Positions 3,463 through 39,200 of a stretch of 64,000 nt of DNA are shown here, one piece after another. Made by a program: the position numbers and the translations under genes. The stretch is from a virus. The first letter of the stretch is position 1. The number at the start of each line of letters is the position of its first letter. The notes beneath the pieces are model-generated. The model had not been told where the DNA came from. It saw only the letters and a list, made by a program, of their open reading frames with translations, and ran no database searches. Location: IMG/VR virus record IMGVR_UViG_3300015371_000007, positions 30,547 to 94,546 of that record; one strand, 5' to 3'.

Positions 3463-3647
3463 TGGCCGCGCGGCCGGTCTGGAAAATCGAGGCCCGCACG
3501 GGCGACCGCGACCCGCACCCGGAGTGGCTGGAGCTGCGCGGCTACGGACGGCGCTATCAGTACGTCGAGCGCGAGGAGGCCGAGAAGATGCTCGCCAAAC
3601 TCCAGCGCACGCAACCCCAGGCGGAGTTCCGGATCGCCCCGCTCTAG
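3462..3647 (+). CDS. hypothetical protein
   Basis: TAATG coupling; MAARPVWKIEAR... Confidence 0.5.
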   Translation: MAARPVWKIEARTGDRDPHPEWLELRGYGRRYQYVEREEAEKMLAKLQRTQPQAEFRIAPL

Positions 3648-3661
3648 GAAAGGACGCCAGC

Positions 3662-3886
3662 ATGGCAGCGGAGATTTTGGTCGGCGAAGCCGCGCGGATT
3701 CTGAACTGCTCGACCAACCACGTGCGGTACCTCGAACGCACCGGCCAGGTGCGGGCCCGCCGGATTGGCAACGTGCGCGTCTTCCTGCGCACCGAAGTGC
3801 AGCGGGTGGCCGACGAACGCTACCGCCGCGCCACCGGGCAACCGCACTGGCGGGGGGAGGACGGATCTCAGGAAGCACCTAGCTGA
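3662..3886 (+). CDS. MerR/excisionase-like helix-turn-helix DNA-binding protein
   Basis: ILVGEAARILNCSTNHVRYLERTG..RVF pattern; AAGGA RBS. Confidence 0.75.
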   Translation: MAAEILVGEAARILNCSTNHVRYLERTGQVRARRIGNVRVFLRTEVQRVADERYRRATGQPHWRGEDGSQEAPS

Positions 3887-3928
3887 TAGTCGTCGACGGC
3901 CCACTACGTCACAAAGAGGAGATTCGGC

Positions 3929-4351
3929 ATGGCTTACGACACGCACGACCTCGCCGCCGTCGGACACGCGGCCAGCGCCTCACGCGCGCGGACCGATGCG
4001 CCCAAAGAGCTGACCGATTTCAGCGTCAAGAAAGGGGACAACGGCGGCGTGCTCGTCTGCGAGAACTACAAGAGCAAGCAGCCCGAAGGCCGACGCAGCG
4101 CCTTCCCGACCACGGGCGACTACAAGGAAAACCCATTCGGCCCCGATGACGGGCCGAAGGCGACCGCCTACATCGGATCGCTCTTGGCGAAGATGACCGG
4201 CGGCGCGATGACCGCGGAGTCGCCCGCCGAAGAAGCCGCCGAGCCGATGGCCCCGCCGATGCGCCGGCCGATCGGTCCGCCGCCCAATCCCGGCGTCGCC
4301 CCCGCGCGACCCGGCGGCATCCAAGGCGTCGGCCCGCGCTCGCTCGCCTGA
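3929..4351 (+). CDS. hypothetical protein
   Basis: AGAGGAG RBS, ATG, strong GC3 bias. Confidence 0.65.
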   Translation: MAYDTHDLAAVGHAASASRARTDAPKELTDFSVKKGDNGGVLVCENYKSKQPEGRRSAFPTTGDYKENPFGPDDGPKATAYIGSLLAKMTGGAMTAESPAEEAAEPMAPPMRRPIGPPPNPGVAPARPGGIQGVGPRSLA

Positions 4352-4847: not shown

Positions 4848-7352
4848 ATGCCGAAGCGCCCAATTCAGACCGTCCGTCCGAGCCCGTCGGACGATCTGCC
4901 GCCCGGTGCCGTCGGGGCGACCCTCGCCTCGAACCGCCCCGGCACTCTGACGCAAGCCTCCGCCGAAGAACTGGCGGAAGCCACCGCGCGCACCCAGCAA
5001 GAGAAGGCCGACGCCTTCATCGCCATCGCCCGCAAACGCTGGCGGCAAAGCGCCAGCAGTGAAGCCGAGCTGCGCAAGGACATGCTCGACGACCTGCGGT
5101 TCTACAACGCCGAGCAGTGGCCCGACAACATCCGGCTCGATCGCGTGCTCGACGGGCGTCCGTGTCTGACCATCAACCGGCTCCCGCAGTTCGTCCGACA
5201 GGTCCTCAACCAGGCGCGCCAGCAGCGGCCGGCGATTCAGTACAACCCGATCGACAACGGGGCCGACGTCGACACCGCCGAAGTGCTGCAGGGCATCGCG
5301 CGCAGCATCGAGCGCAACTCCAACGCGCCGATGGCCTACAACACTGCCAACGAGCATCAGGTCATCATGGGCCGCGGGTGGCTCCGCGTCCGCGCCGACT
5401 GGATTGCCCACGATAGCTTCGACCAAGAAATCCTCATCGAGAGTCCCGAGGATCCCTTCATCGTCTATCCCGACGTCGCCGCGGGGAAACCCGATGGCAG
5501 CGACGCGCTGTGGGGCTTCCTCATCGCGCGCGTGCCCTGGTACGAATACAAGGTCAAGTACCCCGGCGCCGCCAAGGCGTCGATGTCGGACTGGACGAGC
5601 ATCGGCGATGAAACCGCCGAGTGGGTCAATGAAAGCGGCGTGCTCGTCGCCGAGTATTACTACATCGACATGGTGCCGGCGGAGCTGGCCGAGTACTACG
5701 TCGACGTCGGCGCGCCGACCCCGCTCAAGATCACCACCTATCGCGACGTCATCCGCCCCGCCGACACCAAGCCCGGTCCGAACGGGGAGCCGCCGCGCGT
5801 CACGATCATCCGCACCCGCGAGACCGTGCGCCGCCAGCTCCGGTGGGCGACGATCAACGGGCTCGAAGTCCTCGAAGGCAACGCCGACAAGACCGCCGGC
5901 CGCGATCTGCCGGGCCCCTTCATCCCGCTGGTGCCGGTCCAAGGCGAGAAGCTCGTCGTCAACGGCAAGCGGAACCTGCGCGGCATGGTCCGCGACGCCA
6001 AGGATCCCCAGCGGACCTACAACTTTTGGGTCAGTGCCGAGACCGAGCTGATTGCGCTGGCGCCGCGCGCGCCGGTCATCGGCGCGGTCGGCCAGTTCGA
6101 GTCGACCAAGGAGCAGTGGCTGCAGGCGAACCGCCGCAACTTCCCCTTCCTCGAATACGACCCGATCGACGTCAACGGCAACCTCGTGCCGGCGCCGCAG
6201 CGCAACGCCTTCGACCCCAACATCAGCCCGATCGTCGCCGCCACCCAGCAGGCCGACATGGACCTCAAGTCCGTGATCGGCATGTTCGACGCGTCGCAGG
6301 AGCGCAGCCGCGAGCAGTCCGGCAAGGCGATCCTCGCCCGCCAGGCGCAAGGCGAACAGGGCACGTCGCATTTCCTCGCCCATCAGGCCTTGTCGATTCA
6401 GCAGGTCGGCCGGATTCTCCTGCACTGGATCCCGGTCTACTACGACCAGCCGCGCGTCATCCGCATCGTCGGCATCGACGACCGCGAGCGCGACGTGCTG
6501 GTGCACGCCGGCAATCCCGACGGGGCCGACCAGGCGCAGCAGCAGCTCAAGGACGACCCGCTCATGCAGGCCGTCTCGTCGGGCGCCATCTACGACGTGG
6601 GCGTCGGCCGCTACGACGTCGGCGTCTCCGTCACGCCGTCGTTCCAGTCGCGCCGCGCGGAGTCAGTCGAGGCGATGACGTCCCTGCTCCAGACGTTCCC
6701 GCTGGCGGCACCCTACGCGCTCGACGTGATCACGAAGAACATGGACTGGCCGGGCGCGCGCGAGCTGTCCGAGCGCTTCAAGCACCTCGTGCCGGCCGAA
6801 GCGCGCGAGCCGGAGGACGGCAGCAAGCCGCTCCCGCCCGAAGTGCAGGCGCAGATGGGGCAGATGCAGCAGCAAATGCAGCTGATGGGGCAGCAGCTCG
6901 AAGAGCAGCAGAAGATCATCGACACCAAGGCGACCGAGCAGGCCGGGCTCGCCAAGATCCGGCAGATGGAGCTGGAGTCCAACGAGCGCCTCGCCAAGAT
7001 GAAGGGCGAGATCGAGATCGCCAAGGTCGAAGAGAAGGCCCGCGCCGAGGCCTCGCTCACCCTCCTCGAAGCCAAGCTCAAGGAACTAGAGAACCAGCAA
7101 CTCTTCCTCCACGAGCGCAAGCTGCAGCTCGAAGCGCCCCAGCCCGGCGAGAAGGCCGCGCCCGAGAAGCGCCAGGTCTCGGAGAGCTTGAACTACAAGG
7201 ACGCGCCGCCGGACGTCCGCCGCCAGATCGAGAAGCAGGCGGGGCTGGTCCCGTCGAAGCACAGCGATCTGGAGGTCAAGAAGCTGAAGGAAGAGGCCAA
7301 GCCGAAGCCGGCCCCGGCCGCAGTGAAGAAGAAACCCGATTTGAAGGCGTAG
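4848..7352 (+). CDS. portal protein (P22 gp1-like)
   Basis: motifs RPCLTINRLPQFVRQV, GRGWLRV, GMVRDAKDPQRTYN, SGKAILARQ, GRYDV; Gln-rich C-terminal coiled coil; position after terL. Confidence 0.92.
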   Translation: MPKRPIQTVRPSPSDDLPPGAVGATLASNRPGTLTQASAEELAEATARTQQEKADAFIAIARKRWRQSASSEAELRKDMLDDLRFYNAEQWPDNIRLDRVLDGRPCLTINRLPQFVRQVLNQARQQRPAIQYNPIDNGADVDTAEVLQGIARSIERNSNAPMAYNTANEHQVIMGRGWLRVRADWIAHDSFDQEILIESPEDPFIVYPDVAAGKPDGSDALWGFLIARVPWYEYKVKYPGAAKASMSDWTSIGDETAEWVNESGVLVAEYYYIDMVPAELAEYYVDVGAPTPLKITTYRDVIRPADTKPGPNGEPPRVTIIRTRETVRRQLRWATINGLEVLEGNADKTAGRDLPGPFIPLVPVQGEKLVVNGKRNLRGMVRDAKDPQRTYNFWVSAETELIALAPRAPVIGAVGQFESTKEQWLQANRRNFPFLEYDPIDVNGNLVPAPQRNAFDPNISPIVAATQQADMDLKSVIGMFDASQERSREQSGKAILARQAQGEQGTSHFLAHQALSIQQVGRILLHWIPVYYDQPRVIRIVGIDDRERDVLVHAGNPDGADQAQQQLKDDPLMQAVSSGAIYDVGVGRYDVGVSVTPSFQSRRAESVEAMTSLLQTFPLAAPYALDVITKNMDWPGARELSERFKHLVPAEAREPEDGSKPLPPEVQAQMGQMQQQMQLMGQQLEEQQKIIDTKATEQAGLAKIRQMELESNERLAKMKGEIEIAKVEEKARAEASLTLLEAKLKELENQQLFLHERKLQLEAPQPGEKAAPEKRQVSESLNYKDAPPDVRRQIEKQAGLVPSKHSDLEVKKLKEEAKPKPAPAAVKKKPDLKA

Positions 7353-30200: not shown

Positions 30201-33200
30201 CCGGACAGCACGTTCCCTCCGCCGGATACGTCGGTCAATCTGCTGCGCGCGAACGCGTCCGGGCCCATGCACACGAAGGCCGAGGGCGCGGCGCAGATCG
30301 AGCAGTGGAAAGCCGCCGCGCAGGAGGCTGGCCGCACACAGGACAACTCGCGGAAGATCATCCTCTCGCTGTACGACCGCACCGGCATCATCTCGAAGCC
30401 GTGGGAAGAGGCGGGCTACAGCGTGCGGCGCTTCGACATCTCGCCGAAAGCGGATGGCGGCACGGCCGAGGACCTGACGGAGTTCGGCAACTGGATGGCC
30501 GAGATCGAGGAAATGCTCGGCCAGGGCTATCAGATCGTCGGCGTGCTCGCGCAGCCGCCCTGCACGTCCTTCACCGACTCTGGCAATTCGCATTGGGACG
30601 CGCTCCATGACACCCCCAACGAGGAGTGGCTGACGCGCACCTACGGCGAAAAGGCGACCGAGTTCTTCGATCGGCCGATCGATTACGCGAACACGCTCGT
30701 GGCGGTGGTGAAGCTCGTGGTCGCGCAGGCGAACCCACGGTTCTACATGATGGAGAACCCGTTGGGGCGCATCGACCAGCAGAACCAGCTGCCGGAGCCG
30801 ACGCTGTCGTTCAACCCGTTCGACTTCGGCGAGCCGTTCTCGAAGAAGACGCAGATTTGGGGCGAGTTCAACCCGCAGCTGCCGACGTTCCGAGTGCCCG
30901 GCTCGAAGGAGGAAGGCGGACAAGGCAGTCGCACGTGGAATCTCTCCAGCGCGCGGAAGTACGAGCGCGAGATGACGCCCGAGGGATTCGCCTACGCGTT
31001 CTTCATGGCGAACCAGGCAGCGGCGCAGGAGGAGTGGGCCAACCAAGAGCGACCGCCCTACAGCGTGCCGCCGCCGGGCCAGAAGTACGACCCCACCAAC
31101 CCGGACCCCGATCTGATCACGACGCCGGCCGCGTTTGGTGACGAGGAGATGCCGGAGCTGACGCCTGAGCAAGCGGCAGCGCAGCGCGCCGAGGCGATCC
31201 GCAAGCTGAAGGAAGGTGCCGGCGCGCCGCCAGCGTCGCGGCCCGCTGAGAGCCTCCCGACGACGCCGGCCGACGACGGCCAGCGTTACGTCGTCTCCAG
31301 CAAGCGCGGGCCGACGCGCAAACTCGGCACCGGCGGGGTCTGGCAGGACACGCACTACGTCACCGGCGAGATCACGGCGACCGGTCCCGACTGGACCGAC
31401 AAGCGCGACGCGGCGCGGCCGCTGACGAAGGCCGAGGTCTATCAGATCGTGCAGGGCGCCGCCGAGCCGGAGGCGCTCAAGATCACGCACGCCGACGACG
31501 CGTCGAAGACGGTCACCATCGGCGAGGTGCAGGGCTACGTCGGCCAGGATGACGAGGACAACGCGATCTACGACCCCGACAAGGCGTGGGGCGCGCGACC
31601 CGCGCCCGCGTCGCAGCCGCCCCGGTCGCGGCCCGTCGAGAAGCCCACCGACGCGTACGACCGCGCCTTCGCCACCGCGCTGAAGCCCGACGATCCCCGA
31701 TGGGCGCCGCTGCGCGAGACCGGGGCGACGGAGTCACAGATCCTCGACGTGGTGCGCGAGGTGTTTCCCGAGGGCACGACGTCGTATCACACGCACCCGG
31801 ACACGGGCTGGGCCTTCGAGATCACGGGCGGCATGGTCCCGAGGGTCGTGGGCACCGCCGGCACCACAGGCGTCCGCGTCAGCGAAGTCGGGCGTCATCT
31901 CGCCGTCCAAGTCAGTCGCGCCCTCGACATCCCGTTGAACTACGAGGCGCGGCCGAAGGCGGAGCCGAAGGGGCCAGCGGTCCAGTTCACGCTCGACCAG
32001 CACCCGTTCACGGCGAAGGTCACGTTCAACCGGTCGGAGACCAACCCGCTCTATCGGGCGGTCATCACGCGCGAAGGCAAGCGCGTCCACGAGTATGAGA
32101 CCGTCGACCTCGACGACGCGGACACGTGGCTCACGCGCCAGCTCACGCAGACCGTGGAGGCGTTCAACGCGTCGCCGCGCGTCACCATCTCGCCGGCCGA
32201 CCACGAGACCGTCAAGACCTACCTGCAGGCGCTCGGCTACAACAACGTCACGCAGCACAAGGACGGCTCGCTCACGGTCCGCGCGACGGAGGGTCGGCAG
32301 CGGTTGGTGTTCCGCGCCACGCCCGGCACCGTCCGCCCCGATACGGGCGGGCCGAGCATCCGGCGCGACGTCGAGCGCCAGGCCGGCGCGCTGGTCGTGC
32401 GCGCGCACAACAAGACGCAGGCCTCGACCGCCGCCTTCAAACAGTTCGAGGCGGACCTGAAGCAGTTCGCCACCGGTCGGCCGTTGCCGTCGGCGTCGAT
32501 GGTCCGGAACGACTCGCGCGAGAAGGCGCAGCCCGGTGGCGTCATCGAGCTGCCGCCCACGCCGCCGCCGTCCCCTGACGCGACCCCGCAGCGCGACATC
32601 GCGTCGCTCCCGCGCGGCACCGCGCCGCCGTGGCAGATGACGCGCAAGGCGTTCCGCGACGATCGCCGCGCCTACACCGTGCCGAAGGGCAACATTTTCG
32701 CCTCCACGCCCGAGGACGTCATGTCCGGGGCCGCGCTGAAGGATCGCAGCCGGGACGAGTTGATCGCGTTCGCGCAGTACAGCGGCGTGCCGACGAAGGG
32801 CTCGAAGGAGAAGCTCGCCAACCGCATCCAGTCCGTGTGGCGCGTCCGGAGCTTCCTCGCGGGCCAGACGGTCCAGACCCTCTCGAAGTATCCGCAGAGC
32901 GATCTGAACCGGATGCACAAGCTGACGCATCGCGGGAAATCCGCGTCCTTCGCCGGCAAGGGCGGGCAGGCGATGTCGCTGCTCAAGTGGCTCGCGACGA
33001 TCCGGAAAAACGGCTTGGACATGATGGCGGACGCCATCCACGAGCTGCACGTCCGGAAAGCCCTGAAAGACGGGCTGGACGTCCCCGCCGAGGTGCTCAA
33101 GGACTACCCGGAACTGGCAAAGGAGGTCGCCGGTGGCGACATTGACAGCACGACAACGGGCGCGCCAGGATCGACTGGTGACCAACCGGCGTCCGGTGCC

Positions 33201-36200
33201 GCCCCGACAGGAGCTGCTGGCACAGGTCAAGGACCTGCTGCGGGCGGGCGTGCCCCACTGGACAGCGGCCCAAAGAGTCCTGCGGAAGTACGGTTTGCGG
33301 TACTTTCCCGATGGGCCGACGGCTTCTGGACCGACGACGTCCTCCCCAGCGCCCGCACCCACGGCTACGACGGCGACGACGCCACCCTCCGAGCCCTCTT
33401 CGACGGACGAGTAGCGTCCGCCCACGAATATCTCGAATCGGTGCGCCCGCTCGAAGCGGAGCACTCGGGCGATGCCTTCATCAAGGACGTCATCGCGCAC
33501 GGCGGCATCAACCTCTCGTACATGGGGCCGCGCCGCGTCGAGGAGTTCACCGTCGTCCAGCAGGCGCTGGCGGCGCAGGGCTACGTTGGTGTGCGGGCTC
33601 CCTTCCGCAAGAACGCCGGCATGTCGCTCGACGACATGCTCGTGGCGCTGAAGCCGAAGTGGCCGGACCTGACCGACGACTGGTCCGTCATCAACAAGCT
33701 CGAACGCATCGGCAGCGGCGAGGAGCCGGCGTCGTGGGGCACCGATAACTTCGCCACGGCGATCCGCGGCGCGGGCGTGGTGCTCGACGAACCGTGGTGG
33801 CAGGACTTCGACGGGACGACGGAGTTCACGCCCGATGCGTTCGAGGGCACGACCGCCGGGCGCCTCTTCCGTGAGCGCGCGGAGAACGCGGCTGACACGG
33901 GCATCCCCACCTACGCGGAGATGCTCGGCGAGATGGCCGACCGCGCCGACCAAGGCTTGCCGGTGTGGGACAACACGCGCGGCGCCGCGCTGGCGCTGCG
34001 CCATCTGGAGAACACCGAGTGGGTGTGGTGGCCGGCGCACACCGACAAGCCCGTGGCGCTCATCCGTCTGACCGAGAACAACGACGCGCAGGGCGACGGG
34101 CGCTACTACAAGGCGAAGATTCTGGAGCAGCTCGCCGGCTGGGGCACCGAGCCCGTGATGGAGAGCATCGGCCATCCGGATGCGCGCTTCGCCGACGGGA
34201 CGATTTCGGTCAGCTTCCCCAACAGCTGGGGCTATCTCCGCGCCGTTGATGCGCTGACCCCAGGCGCCGTCGGGGACGCGGCCAGTCCCGAGCAGACCAT
34301 GTCGTCCGCGGATCTCGCCGATCTCATCCGCGACGAGCTGGTGGAGGAAGGCAAGACCGGGAAGGACTCCCCGCTCCCCGAGCAGACCGCGTTCATGGTC
34401 GGGCCGAAGTCGCACGTCGATCACGACGTGACGCCCGCGCACCTCGCGTTTGCGCAGCAGCACTTCGCCGGCCGCACGGCGTTCTTCGCCGAAACCGTCA
34501 CGCTCCCTGACGATCTGCCGGCGCTGCCGTCGGCGCTCTATGGGCCGATCGCCGGCGATCCGCCGGTGCCGGATGCGGACGTGTTCCAGGCGAAGCGCGG
34601 CGATCGGGCGTGGGACTCGCGCCTCATCGACCGGCCGTCGCGCCCGAGCCGCAAGCTCACCGTCATTGCCGGCCCGAATGCGGACGGGCAGATGGTGCTC
34701 TACACCGCGTTCGGCGGCGAGCTGGCGCCGCAGGAACCCGGTGACCCCGGCGCGCGCGACAAGGCAGCATCCGAGCAGTTCTGGTCCGAGCACGCGCTGA
34801 GCGCTCCGGCGTTCAACGTCACGCCGCCCGAGCCGGAAGGCGAGCCGCGTGCGCCGTGGCAAATGACGCCCGAGGAATGGGCCGCGCACGAAGCGAAGGC
34901 GTTCGGCGACGCGCCGAAGCCCGTGACCGATCGGACCCGCGGCTGGCATCGCGGCCAGGTGCTCGATGCGGTGAAGGCCGGCAAGCCGGTTCCCGCGCGC
35001 GTGCTGGCGCTCTATCCCGAGGCGGCGCCGGACGCCGCGCCGGATGTCATCACCTTCCGCTCCGGCAACCAGACGTCGCCGACCGACATCGCCGGCTACA
35101 TCCGCGCCGGCAAGGCCGTGGGCGTGGTCGCGTTCGCCAATCCCAAGGTGCGGGCGCAGGCGGTCGAGTACGCGCAGCACGGCGGACCGGTGTTCGTCGA
35201 CTCCGGCGCGTTCGGCCACACGGTCGTCGAGAACGGCGTCGCGCGCTCCACGCTCGATTTCGACGCGGTGCTCGACTACTACATCGAGCTACTGGTCGAC
35301 ATCGGCGAGGCGCACGCCGGCAACGTGTGGGTCGTCGCGCCCGACGTCGCGCCTGCGATGGTCGACGGGCAGATGCGGACCTTCCCGCAAGAGACGCGCG
35401 ATCTCCAGAAGCAGTATCGCGCGCGCGTCCAGGCGCTGATCGACACGGGCGCCAACGTCATCGCCCCGGTGCAGGTCGACGAGTCGCGCTTCGTGGCCGA
35501 CGTGATCGACACCGTCGCCGACTTCCCCGGCGCGCAGCTCGGCTTGCCGGGCAACAAGGGCGCGGTGCCCGTCGACGTGCTGGCCGAAGCGATGGCGGCG
35601 CTGACCACGACGCACCTCGGCGAGGATTTCCGCGGCGTGCATTTCTTGGGCGTCGGCGATGTCGGGACCGCGAAGGCGAAGCTCCAGTACTACGTCGACA
35701 CGGTGCGCGCGGACTTCCCTGACGCGCTCATCACGTCGGATGCCACGCGCACCACGGCGATGATCGGCGAGGGCCGCGTCCTCACGGAAGGCGCGCGCAA
35801 GCAGCTCCGGATGCTCGGCGGCTTTGCCGCAGACGAAGAGGTGGTCGACTACGACCTCGACAGTGGCGTGGCCGGACAGTTCTTCCGCGGCGAGTGGGAC
35901 AAGTTCACGCCGCAGGAGCTGCAGCGCGTGTTCGACGCCGCCGGCCTCACCCGCGAGGCGGCGGAGCAGCTCCGCGCCGAGGGGCGCATCAACGAGATCT
36001 TCGACTGGAAGGGCTACCAGCAGTGGATGCGGGACAAGATCGAAACGCCCGCGGACCAAGAGCTGCCTGAGCCGCCGAACCCGGCGTTCGTGACGCCCGA
36101 GACGGATCCGTCCGTCTACCCGCCCGTCGTCGACACGCTCATGGACATCGTGAGCGACCGCGAAACGGCGAAGCCCACGACGCGCCTGCAAGCGCGCGAA

Positions 36201-39200
36201 GACGCCATCGCGCATATCGAGATGGACGCGCAGACGCCCGAGGAACGGGCCCGCGGCGACGCGATCCGCAAGCTGAAGGAGACGCAAGCCGCAGCGGCGC
36301 CGGCCGTCGACGTGCTCGACACGGGCGAGCAGCAGCCGCGCCTGCCCGGCGACGTCGGCGAGGTGCGGACGCAGGAGACGGCGACGCCGGAGTTCGACGC
36401 GCCGTTCTCGCTCACGTCCGAGATCGGCAAGACGAAGCCGCAGAAGCCGGACACGCTCTTCCAAGATCCGGACGAGGAGCGGATTCCGACCGCGACCGAA
36501 ATCAAGCTGATGGTCGACATCGTCGACTCGTACCCGAAGACGATGCCGTTCGAGGAGGCGGTGCGATCCTTCGCGGCCGAGTTCGGCGACGGGTTCGCCG
36601 GCAAGCTGCACACGGCGTTCGAGAAGGCGTGGAAGTTCCGGCGCCGCGAGGTCAAGAAGGTCGAGGACGTGTTGTCGGCGCGCAAGCCGGCGCCGCCCAA
36701 GAAGGAGGAGGAACCGGCGCCGCCGCCGCGCCCGCCGCAGCCGCCACCGCCGCCCGCGCCGCCGCCGTCGCTGCCGCCCGGATTGGCGGCACTGGCGGAC
36801 CGGCCGCTCGGCGTCGGGCAGAAGCACCGCACCACGCTGGTGAAGGATCTGTTCAGCAAGGATCCGGGGTACGTCGATTGGCTGGTGGGGCTGGACCGGC
36901 CGTCCGAGCTGTTCAAGCAGGTTCGGGAGTACTATACGAAGTACCGGCCCGACTACCTGAAGTACGTGCGGGACCGGGAGGCGGCGACGAAGGAGCCGGC
37001 GCCTGAGACGCCGCCGGCACCACCGGTCGATCCCGCGTCCGTGCTGACGCCGGACAACCTCGCCGTGCTGCGGCGCGCTGGGGTGACCGCGGAGGCCGGG
37101 CCAGACGGCACGATTCTGCTGAAGGGGCGCACGTATGCCTACAAAGACCTCATCCGATCAGCCGGAGGACGCTCAGCTCCTAGAGGAGATGATGGCCGCT
37201 TCACGGGATGGCTCATACCAGCCAACCGCCTGGCCGAACTCGTTGGTCGACTCGGAGACCGCCGTAGCAATGGTCAAGGATCCGGCCAACGCCGAGCCAG
37301 TTATGAAAGCCATCCAGAGCTTGCAGATCTCCGACGACGAGCTGACGAATGGCCTGACGCCAGCGACCTGCCAGGCGATCGTGCATCAGTTCTCTCGCCG
37401 GGTACTGCAGCCGTCATCACCAAAGGCGGGCTCGCCATCGGCATCCCGCAGTTCGTCCTCGACGAACAAATCGAAGACGTAGCGCGGATTTCGCACGCCT
37501 ATCAAAAGCAGCTGCCGGCCTTCATCCTCGCGTCCGAACCGGGGTCGGGCAAGACCTTCGTGCTCGGCGGCGCCATGCGCGAGCTGCGCCGGCAGGGCGC
37601 CAAGAAGATCGTCTACGTCACGCTGAACAACGACCTCGTCAGCCAGATCCGCAACGACCTCGCGGCGTTTGCGATCGGCGACGTGCAGTTCATTACCTAC
37701 GACAAGCTCCGCAAGACGGAGCCGTTCGCGGTCGACGCGATCATTTTCGACGAAGCGCAGAAGATCAAGAACGTCGAGGAAGGCGGCTCGGCCGTCGCCA
37801 TCGCGGCGCAGGGCTGGGTCGACGAGGCGAAGTTCACCATCTACGCGTCGGCGACGCCGGCCGAGAACCCCGTGCAGATGGAATACATCGCGACGACGGG
37901 CTTGCTGAAGCCGCTCGTGGGCGATGAGTTCTGGAAGTTCGCCGCCGCGTTCGGAGCGACCCCGCTCCGGCGCAAGGACGGCGCCGGCAACATCTACTAC
38001 GACATCGAATGGCGCCGCACGCTCACCAGCGATGCGGACGCCGCCGCCGCGCGCGAGTGGCTGCGGAAGCAGGGCGTCTACACGTCGCGGCGCATCCGGC
38101 TCCCTGATGGGCAGGTCGATTCGCGCAACGTCAAGATCGACGTCCCCGAGGTGCACGAGCGGCGCTACACGCAGATCTCGCAAGCCGTCGCGGCGATGGG
38201 GCCGGACGGCAACGCGAAGATGTGGGTGATCAACTTCCAGAAGCGCCTGCTCGAAGCCGCCAAGGTCCAGCAGGCGATCACGGAAGCCCGCAGCGCGCTC
38301 GACCGTGGCCGGTTCCCGATCATCTTCGTGGAGACGAAGGCGGAACGGCGCATCGACATCCCGGACCTCATGCAGCGCGAGCGCGACTATGCGCTCGCCG
38401 TCGGCATGGCGAAAGCGATGGGCGACAGTAAGCCCCGCCGCAAGGAGTTCGGCCTGCCGCCGGCCGGCGTGACCGAAGTGCTTGAGCACTACATGAACGC
38501 CAGCGGCGAGTCGGTGATCGAGATCCCGCCGGCCGTCGATGAGGTGCGCAAGGCGCTCGGCGCCGAGAACGTCGCCGAGTACACCGGCGACGTCAGCGGC
38601 AAGCAAGCGGCCGCGAACCTGGCCGAGTGGCGCGCGGGCGGACGCAAGGTGCTCGTCGCCACGATGGCGAAGGGCGGCACCGGGCTGTCGCTGCACGACA
38701 AGGTCGGCGACCATCAGACGACGCAGATCAACATCAACATGCCGTGGACGGCGACCTCGCTCGTGCAGGTCGCCCAGCGGTCGGCGCGGTATGGCTTGAA
38801 GGGCCGCGCCGAGATCATGTGGCTCTTCGCGCACAACATCCCGTTCGACCGCGCCCTGGCCCGTCGCGTCGGCGGACGAATGGCGGACCTCGGCGCGATC
38901 GTGCACGGCGAAGCGCTGCCGGGATCCGAGCAGATCGAAAATTGGGACTTCGAGGACGAATCGTTCGCCGACGAAGAAGTCAAGCGCGTCACGGCCGAGA
39001 TGAACCGGGAGGCGGGGAACGTCGCGCTCGAACAGGGCGAGGTGCCCGACGACATCGCGCGCGAGGCGGAGCCCGCGCGGTGGACCGGCGAGAACATCGC
39101 GTCGATCCTCAACATCCCGCGCGACCAGGGCGACGCCATCGCGGCGCTGACGCAGTTCGCGGGACTGGACCTCCCGTCGTTCCCCGGCATCCTGCTCGTC

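Follow-up and report, generated by a model that had tools for sequence, protein, structure and literature searches.

A probable working gene nested in an inter-domain linker of a giant polyvalent gene of an uncultured phage

Small genes that lie wholly inside larger ones are known from phages, and in the spanin genes of phage lambda Rz1 is nested within Rz in the +1 frame, with a ribosome binding site (RBS) and a start codon of its own. A comparable arrangement is described here for IMGVR_UViG_3300015371_000007, an uncultured phage record of IMG/VR that spans 94.5 kb and is estimated to be 93% complete. The stretch of DNA that was analysed, referred to as the window, comprises 64,000 nucleotides (nt; bases 30547–94546 of the record), and all window features are given on its plus strand. 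The window's list of open reading frames (ORFs) contains a giant ORF of 23.5 kb for a protein of 7,823 amino acids (aa; 24276–47747) and, in the +1 frame of this giant ORF, a second ORF of 93 aa (33133–33414). We consider it probable, at roughly 0.8, that this second ORF represents a real nested gene of 80–93 codons that is under selection, is wholly contained in the giant polyvalent gene, runs in its +1 frame and sits at a border between two domains. In both this locus and Rz1/Rz, a small nested +1 gene has its own RBS and start and would be read from the same late mRNA as its host. Several differences stand against this likeness. Firstly, the nested gene of this locus lies in a linker between domains of its host, a multi-enzyme protein of 7,823 aa. 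Secondly, the host frame appears unconstrained over most of the overlap, with a ratio of nonsynonymous to synonymous change (dN/dS) of about 1.6, whereas both readings of Rz specify functional components of a single complex. Lastly, nothing in the small protein points to a lipoprotein signal, nor does anything link it to lysis.

Overprinting in phiX174 (B in A, E in D, and K) and in RNA viruses (reviewed in PMC8227390) provides a second group for comparison, and these genes share with this locus both the use of one DNA in two frames and the signals by which such use is recognized, namely codon usage, suppressed synonymous change and conserved alternative starts and stops. In classic overprinting the new protein is short and oddly composed and the host frame is old. 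Here, in contrast, it is the short gene that has normal codons, a predicted folded core and a free-standing homologue, and the long reading that is odd and disordered, so that the polarity appears to be reversed. The host gene itself is typical of the polyvalent proteins described by Iyer et al. (2017; PMC5512222), as it combines LPD14, M15, SF2 helicase, PBECR5 and ART-PolyVal domains. When that article was searched by terms, overlapping frames, nested genes, linkers and frameshifts were not mentioned in it, and full-text literature searches returned nothing on nested genes in polyvalent proteins. Within the literature covered, linker-nested genes thus do not belong to the published account of these proteins. 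Nested phage genes are thus not new as such; what is new is the setting in an inter-domain linker of a giant polyvalent gene, the unconstrained host frame and the recurrence of the arrangement.

The start signals of the nested ORF can be read directly in the window. A Shine–Dalgarno-like word, AAGGAGGT (33120–33127), is followed after 5 nt by a GTG start codon (33133–33135), which lies 13 nt after the first A of AAGGAG, and the frame ends at a TAG stop (33412–33414) that is formed by a main-frame GTA (valine) codon and the next G. The original prediction had named the RBS, the spacing, the GTG and the 93-aa +1 ORF, and all of them are present as it gave them. It had also held that the main frame turns into a featureless linker at this point, which agrees with a reading rich in G, A, P and T and with a fall in the main-frame G+C content at third codon positions (GC3) from 0.90 over the whole giant ORF to 0.52–0.56 over 33120–33330. 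A second codon score, based on synonymous codon choice only and calculated per frame over the 23.5-kb ORF, reached −20 for the main frame at the nested ORF (ORF mean 9.3, standard deviation 4.4) and up to +8 for the +1 frame. There are only two places in the giant ORF where the main frame is not the best-scoring frame, 33126–33335 and 37146–37415, and the +1 frame wins at both.

The length of the nested ORF is by itself no evidence, because 21% of the +1 open runs inside this GC-rich gene reach 93 codons. Nor is the word AAGGAGG informative when taken alone, as the window contains it 7 times where 3.8 occurrences would be expected. The combination of RBS words with start codons was counted for four strong hexamers, and the giant ORF held a single such pair compared with 8.7 ± 2.9 after codon shuffling; this sole pair is the one at 33120/33133. 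With an extended set that adds two weaker G-rich words the giant ORF held three pairs, two of which fall at the two codon-bias switches. The depletion suggests that there may be selection against internal initiation in the giant ORF except at nested genes. The observation flagged in the original prediction is confirmed, well beyond what chance would give.

Two relatives represented by DNA, L029 (Ga0066903) and L030 (Ga0111538), were found by a metagenome scan with the main-frame domain that lies downstream of the overlap. Their copies of this domain are 56% identical over 300 aa (L029) and 34% identical (L030) to that of the window, and the giant frame is open over the whole locus in each (10.6 kb in L029 and 8.8 kb in L030). 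Both encode the small protein's core in +1 relative to the giant frame, within nested ORFs of 82 aa (L029, 3536–3784; AAGGAG at 3523, ATG start) and 80 aa (L030, 1865–2107; AAGGAG at 1852, GTG start). In all three lineages a +1-frame start codon follows exactly 13 nt after the first A of AAGGAG; L029 uses ATG, whereas the window and L030 use GTG. The main-frame residues at this position are wholly different among the three, and ATG and GTG make up only 1.3–2.2% of +1 codons. The 7 nt between AAGGAG and the start differ in every lineage and hold no stop. The TAG stop is made from a main-frame GTA codon in three out of three cases, a codon that accounts for 1.6%, 3.9% and 3.5% of the valine codons in the giant ORFs of the window, L029 and L030, respectively. 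The proteins are 93, 82 and 80 aa long, with N-terminal arms that differ by whole codons, and the codon-bias switch is repeated at the homologous places in L029 and L030. That relatives should keep the RBS/start and an open +1 frame had been set beforehand as a test, and the window, L029 and L030 have these in common, together with the stop.

Selection was estimated per frame by pairwise Nei–Gojobori dN/dS over the 39-codon core (33196–33312), a comparison that had been proposed together with the original prediction and that came out in its favour. Between the window and L029 the core has an identity of 0.67 and a dN/dS of 0.26 in the +1 frame, compared with 0.39 and 1.63 in the main frame. 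The corresponding values for L030 are 0.36 and 0.64 in the +1 frame and 0.25 and 1.52 in the main frame. When about 10 kb were scanned against L029, the core stood out with by far the largest excess of +1 over main-frame identity (0.62–0.66 vs 0.36–0.45). These values support purifying selection on the +1 frame of the core, as judged from the sequence comparison. Beyond the core the pattern changes: over 33312–33413 the main-frame synonymous difference is 0.20 for L029 and 0.09–0.11 for L030, where the comparison values have medians of 0.51 and 0.45, respectively, and a 5th percentile of 0.27. Such a dip is what a second constraint acting on the same nucleotides classically leaves behind, and over its last ~33 codons the nested gene would have both frames constrained and be truly dual-coding. 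It thus appears that start signals, stop, open frame and the sequence of a helical core of ~39 residues have been kept by selection in three divergent phage lineages.

Homologues of the small protein are few. When the 93-aa product was compared by phmmer with 1.84 billion representative proteins, two matches were obtained, P0003 (81 aa, E value 1.9e-10), a free-standing gene call that begins with Met, and P0004 (204 aa, E value 1.7e-5). Both are JGI metagenome proteins from short contigs (3,589 bp for P0003 and 2,153 bp for P0004) and are known here from their protein records alone. A profile search of 5.8 billion clusters with alignment A1 found no members beyond these two. Substitutions in the core are conservative among the homologues and the helical pattern is retained (alignments A1 and A2). 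The tail of P0003 beyond the core differs from that of the window product, and therefore the small protein would there stand in another 3′ context. P0004, on the other hand, has the same off-frame tail as the window product, which by implication puts it at an identical +1 offset to the same downstream domain; this domain accompanies the small gene in four of the five known members. Neither the +1 product nor P0003, P0004 or alignment A1 had a match when viral contigs were scanned, and the same holds for metagenome and genome-contig scans with A1 and a genome-contig scan with alignment A3. No match was found by blastn of 32400–34200 against GenBank phages and PLSDB plasmids, by tblastn of the +1 product, P0003 and the downstream domain against GenBank phages, or by homologous-protein searches with main-frame segments.

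Some points weigh against a selected nested gene. The dN/dS values come from short pairwise stretches and from a method that is not made for overlapping frames, so they are indicative, and the core comparison with L030 is the weaker of the two (+1 dN/dS 0.64). Conservation of AAGGAG is partly due to the main frame, which needs Lys-Glu there and prefers GC-rich codons. In addition, the family is small, as only five members are known (the window, L029, L030, P0003 and P0004). The estimates of selection are consistent among themselves and fit the conserved signals.

According to the arrangement we propose, the nested gene would be started from its own RBS (AAGGAGGT) at GTG 33133 and terminated at TAG 33412–33414, and ribosomes translating the giant gene would cross the same DNA in the main frame, producing an unconstrained linker rich in G, A, P and T that joins the upstream and downstream domains. 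This linker, the −1 reading of the nested gene, covers 33128–33311 and is characterized by a GC3 of 0.52, an identity of 0.25–0.39 and a dN/dS of 1.5–1.6. Between 33133 and the start of the next domain the main frame contains no ATG, GTG or TTG, and the downstream domain would therefore be made only by read-through from upstream. In simulations that held the +1 protein fixed and used the codon usage of the phage, the main frame was stop-free over the first 60 codons in 89% of cases, so the overlap would cost the main frame little. A high G+C content would thus make a stop-free crossing of a small gene likely (0.89).

The description of the locus as an overprinted gene in the original prediction stands for dual coding, and it probably has to be turned around for direction: of the two coding readings, that of the small gene seems to be the older, and the linker of the giant protein seems to be the newer, overprinted one. 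This follows from the codon usage, which is genome-typical in the +1 frame and off-frame in the main frame, together with a main-frame dN/dS above 1. It also follows from the existence of the free-standing homologue P0003 and of a relative whose downstream domain occurs without the nested gene. This relative (L031), which is more distant than L029 and L030 and is another viral contig with a 1,628-aa protein, has a downstream domain with 30% identity that comes after an ordinary in-frame linker rich in P, A and E, and its region 3720–4140 contains no nested core, the +1 frame giving only junk. The distant relatives L003 and L004 have ordinary low-complexity linkers after the upstream domain. 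The small gene may thus have been engulfed, or inserted into the linker, as the flanking domains were joined. A more general form of this history, in which giant polyvalent proteins grow across small resident genes whose −1 reading becomes a flexible linker and which are still translated inside, is put forward tentatively, and we would sooner expect it to fail than to hold.

A stop-free crossing that is this cheap in GC-rich DNA (0.89) would also permit the small gene to be a relic, which was run over by a recent fusion into the giant ORF and is now neither translated nor needed, and the tiny size of the family would fit such a fate. The arrangement is, however, common to three lineages whose next domains are only 34–56% identical and whose synonymous sites are about half saturated. 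Over such a span, codon bias, start, rare-codon stop and low dN/dS would all have disappeared from a frame that is dead, which makes a relic very unlikely.

The strong Shine–Dalgarno-like word just 5′ of the point where the +1 frame begins to look coding could alternatively act as an internal signal of the prfB type. Ribosomes would then undergo a programmed +1 frameshift near 33128–33135 and make a product of ~2,950 residues that ends with the core at the stop at 33414. Such a model requires the conserved +1 frame, core and stop just as a nested gene does. It has no need of a start codon, yet each of the three lineages retains one at the same +1 codon although their main-frame residues differ. 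Moreover, the codons between the Shine–Dalgarno-like word and the start are not conserved and share no slow codon or stop, and P0003 is a free-standing 81-aa call that begins with Met. We therefore regard a programmed +1 shift as highly improbable. A different type of recoding was considered for the other end of the small gene, an IS3-like −1 frameshift from the small ORF into the downstream domain; this candidate was rejected, as no slippery heptamer was seen by eye in the +1 frame over 33290–33414.

Compensated frameshift mutations, or a pair of assembly indels, would make the core an in-frame part of the giant protein, and a codon-bias switch that is short (~33150–33310) and has normal main-frame sequence on both sides is what such a pair would leave behind. 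Against this, the same +1 offset, start and stop occur in two independent metagenome assemblies of divergent relatives, the tail of P0004 implies the same offset again, and the phmmer search found no long protein among the 1.84 billion representatives that has the core in frame, so that an indel pair seems extremely unlikely. A meaningless open frame that arose by chance has next to no probability left: off-frame ORFs of this length are common in GC-rich coding DNA (the 21% given above) and the giant ORF has many long alternative ORFs, but the homologue at E 1.9e-10, the codon-bias switch, the conserved start and stop and the frame-specific selection refute it.

If the nested gene is translated as proposed, its product would consist of three parts. 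The N-terminal arm (33133–33195) is basic, rich in R and Q with alternating basic and hydrophobic residues, variable in length in alignments A1 and A2 and modelled with low confidence. It is followed by the conserved core of two helices with a short turn (33196–33312), which is supported by the phmmer matches to P0003 and P0004, the AlphaFold model and the dN/dS values. The third part is a tail rich in P, T and S (33313–33411) that shares its DNA with the opening ~33 codons of the next main-frame domain, where main-frame synonymous change is suppressed. An AlphaFold monomer model built from three sequences places helices at residues 25–37 and 42–53 with a predicted local distance difference test score (pLDDT) of 78–90, with a low-confidence coil or arm before them and a disordered tail after them. 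The amphipathic helical mini-protein with G/C-ending codons that had been read from the +1 frame is thereby borne out by a codon score of +8 and two confidently predicted helices. The isoelectric points of the proteins from the three lineages are 11.1, 11.2 and 9.5.

In size (45–90 aa), basic character and disordered tail the small protein resembles ribbon-helix-helix proteins such as Arc, Mnt, CopG and antitoxins of the ParD/RelB type, which are common in phages. The order of a short arm with alternating basic and hydrophobic residues and then two helices is also similar, and one member shows a weak match to the Pfam family RHH_9 (the L030 protein; E value 0.0036 and 17.6 bits, below the cut-off of 23.4). 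None of the five members reaches a Pfam cut-off, however, and four have no match; where G-x-S/T/N is usual for the inter-helix turn, four of the five have G-V-P. This is a resemblance and a lead, not membership of the family. No functional assignment is supported by a significant match: the proteins of the window, L029, P0003 and P0004 have no RHH_9 match; fold searches with the small protein gave noise, with Foldseek E values of about 4 or worse (the top match being the EF-Ts N-terminal domain) and VIA Z scores of at most 3.4; and a profile search of PDB sequences returned nothing significant. No significant family emerged from Pfam, PHROGs, NCBIfam and PADLOC, nothing usable came from the ESM Atlas, and a six-frame search of the phage record for RHH_9 found no match. 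Our first choice for the function, although the odds are against it, is a small regulator of the ribbon-helix-helix type that would bind nucleic acid as a dimer and be produced from the giant gene's late mRNA. The second choice, a partner of the neighbouring domain that acts as neutraliser or chaperone, we hold to be rather unlikely. The original prediction had suggested an inhibitor, immunity factor or chaperone of an enzymatic domain of the polyprotein, a role that no family match speaks for or against.

The other codon-bias switch of the giant ORF coincides with a second nested +1 ORF of 115 aa (37135–37482), which lies just upstream of the helicase domain and starts with an ATG at 37135, preceded at a distance of 8 nt by GAAGGG (element from 37121). 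Its product is 67% identical in L029 (7943–8287) and 56% identical in L030 (6827–7162), and the main-frame synonymous difference over this ORF is 0.17–0.24. No family match was found for the product. The second ORF thus appears to be a nested gene conserved like the first in L029 and L030. L030 has a third move of the codon bias to the +1 frame at 5970–6090, where that frame reads as a normal protein, and the corresponding place in the window shows no codon-bias switch; this may be a lineage-specific nested gene. The family of giant genes would accordingly have at least two nested genes common to three lineages and a possible third in L030 only, and the co-occurrence of shared and lineage-specific cases suggests repeated gain.

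Gene callers allow one frame per stretch, and thus genes nested in very long ORFs are never annotated. In the present case a codon-bias scan together with two relatives recovered two nested genes in one giant gene. If the proposed reading is true, linker-nested genes could offer GC-rich phages a general route of gene fusion and also form a reservoir of small proteins concealed from gene callers, which might be regulators or neutralisers matched to the modules on either side. It suggests a possible route by which giant multi-domain proteins are assembled across intervening genes without losing them. Loci of this type would also provide a cleaner test case for overlapping genes, as one of the two frames is a linker that needs only to stay open and the cost of the overlap is near nil. 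Should DNA or the neighbouring modules be the targets of the small proteins, these would be new players in the biology of injected phage effectors.

The giant host gene (24276–47747) encodes Peptidase_M15_4, ResIII/Helicase_C, PBECR5 and ART-PolyVal domains that score over the Pfam cut-offs, and an LPD14 domain with a score slightly below its cut-off. Because M15, ResIII/helicase, PBECR5, ART-PolyVal and LPD14 occur in one polypeptide, the predicted product is classified as a polyvalent, multi-enzyme protein, and it is probably virion-borne. The G+C content of this DNA is 68%. Upstream of the nested gene, the main-frame domain ends with the motif KDYPELAK (33099–33122), whose final codons provide the AAGGAG word, and this motif is kept in the distant relatives L003 and L004 as well as in L029 and L030. 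The downstream main-frame domain (33312–34202), for which the identities to L029 and L030 were given above, has no assigned family: it had no match in Pfam or in a search of PDB sequences, its structure model is poor (pLDDT 59), and a fold search from this pLDDT 59 model came back empty.

The capsid gene of the phage (window 9089–10471) has 24 relatives in IMG/VR (L005–L028) with 29–98% identity, some of which are near-complete genomes of 88 kb. The +1 product and a 700-aa main-frame segment were found in none of these 24 capsid relatives. Since the segment of the giant protein is missing from all of them, the polyvalent gene would turn over much faster than the structural module. Further downstream in the giant ORF, two 33-codon windows (35409–35507 and 35937–36035) also have a low main-frame synonymous difference to L029 (0.22–0.24), at a protein identity of 0.73–0.76, and these low values could come from a very conserved domain.

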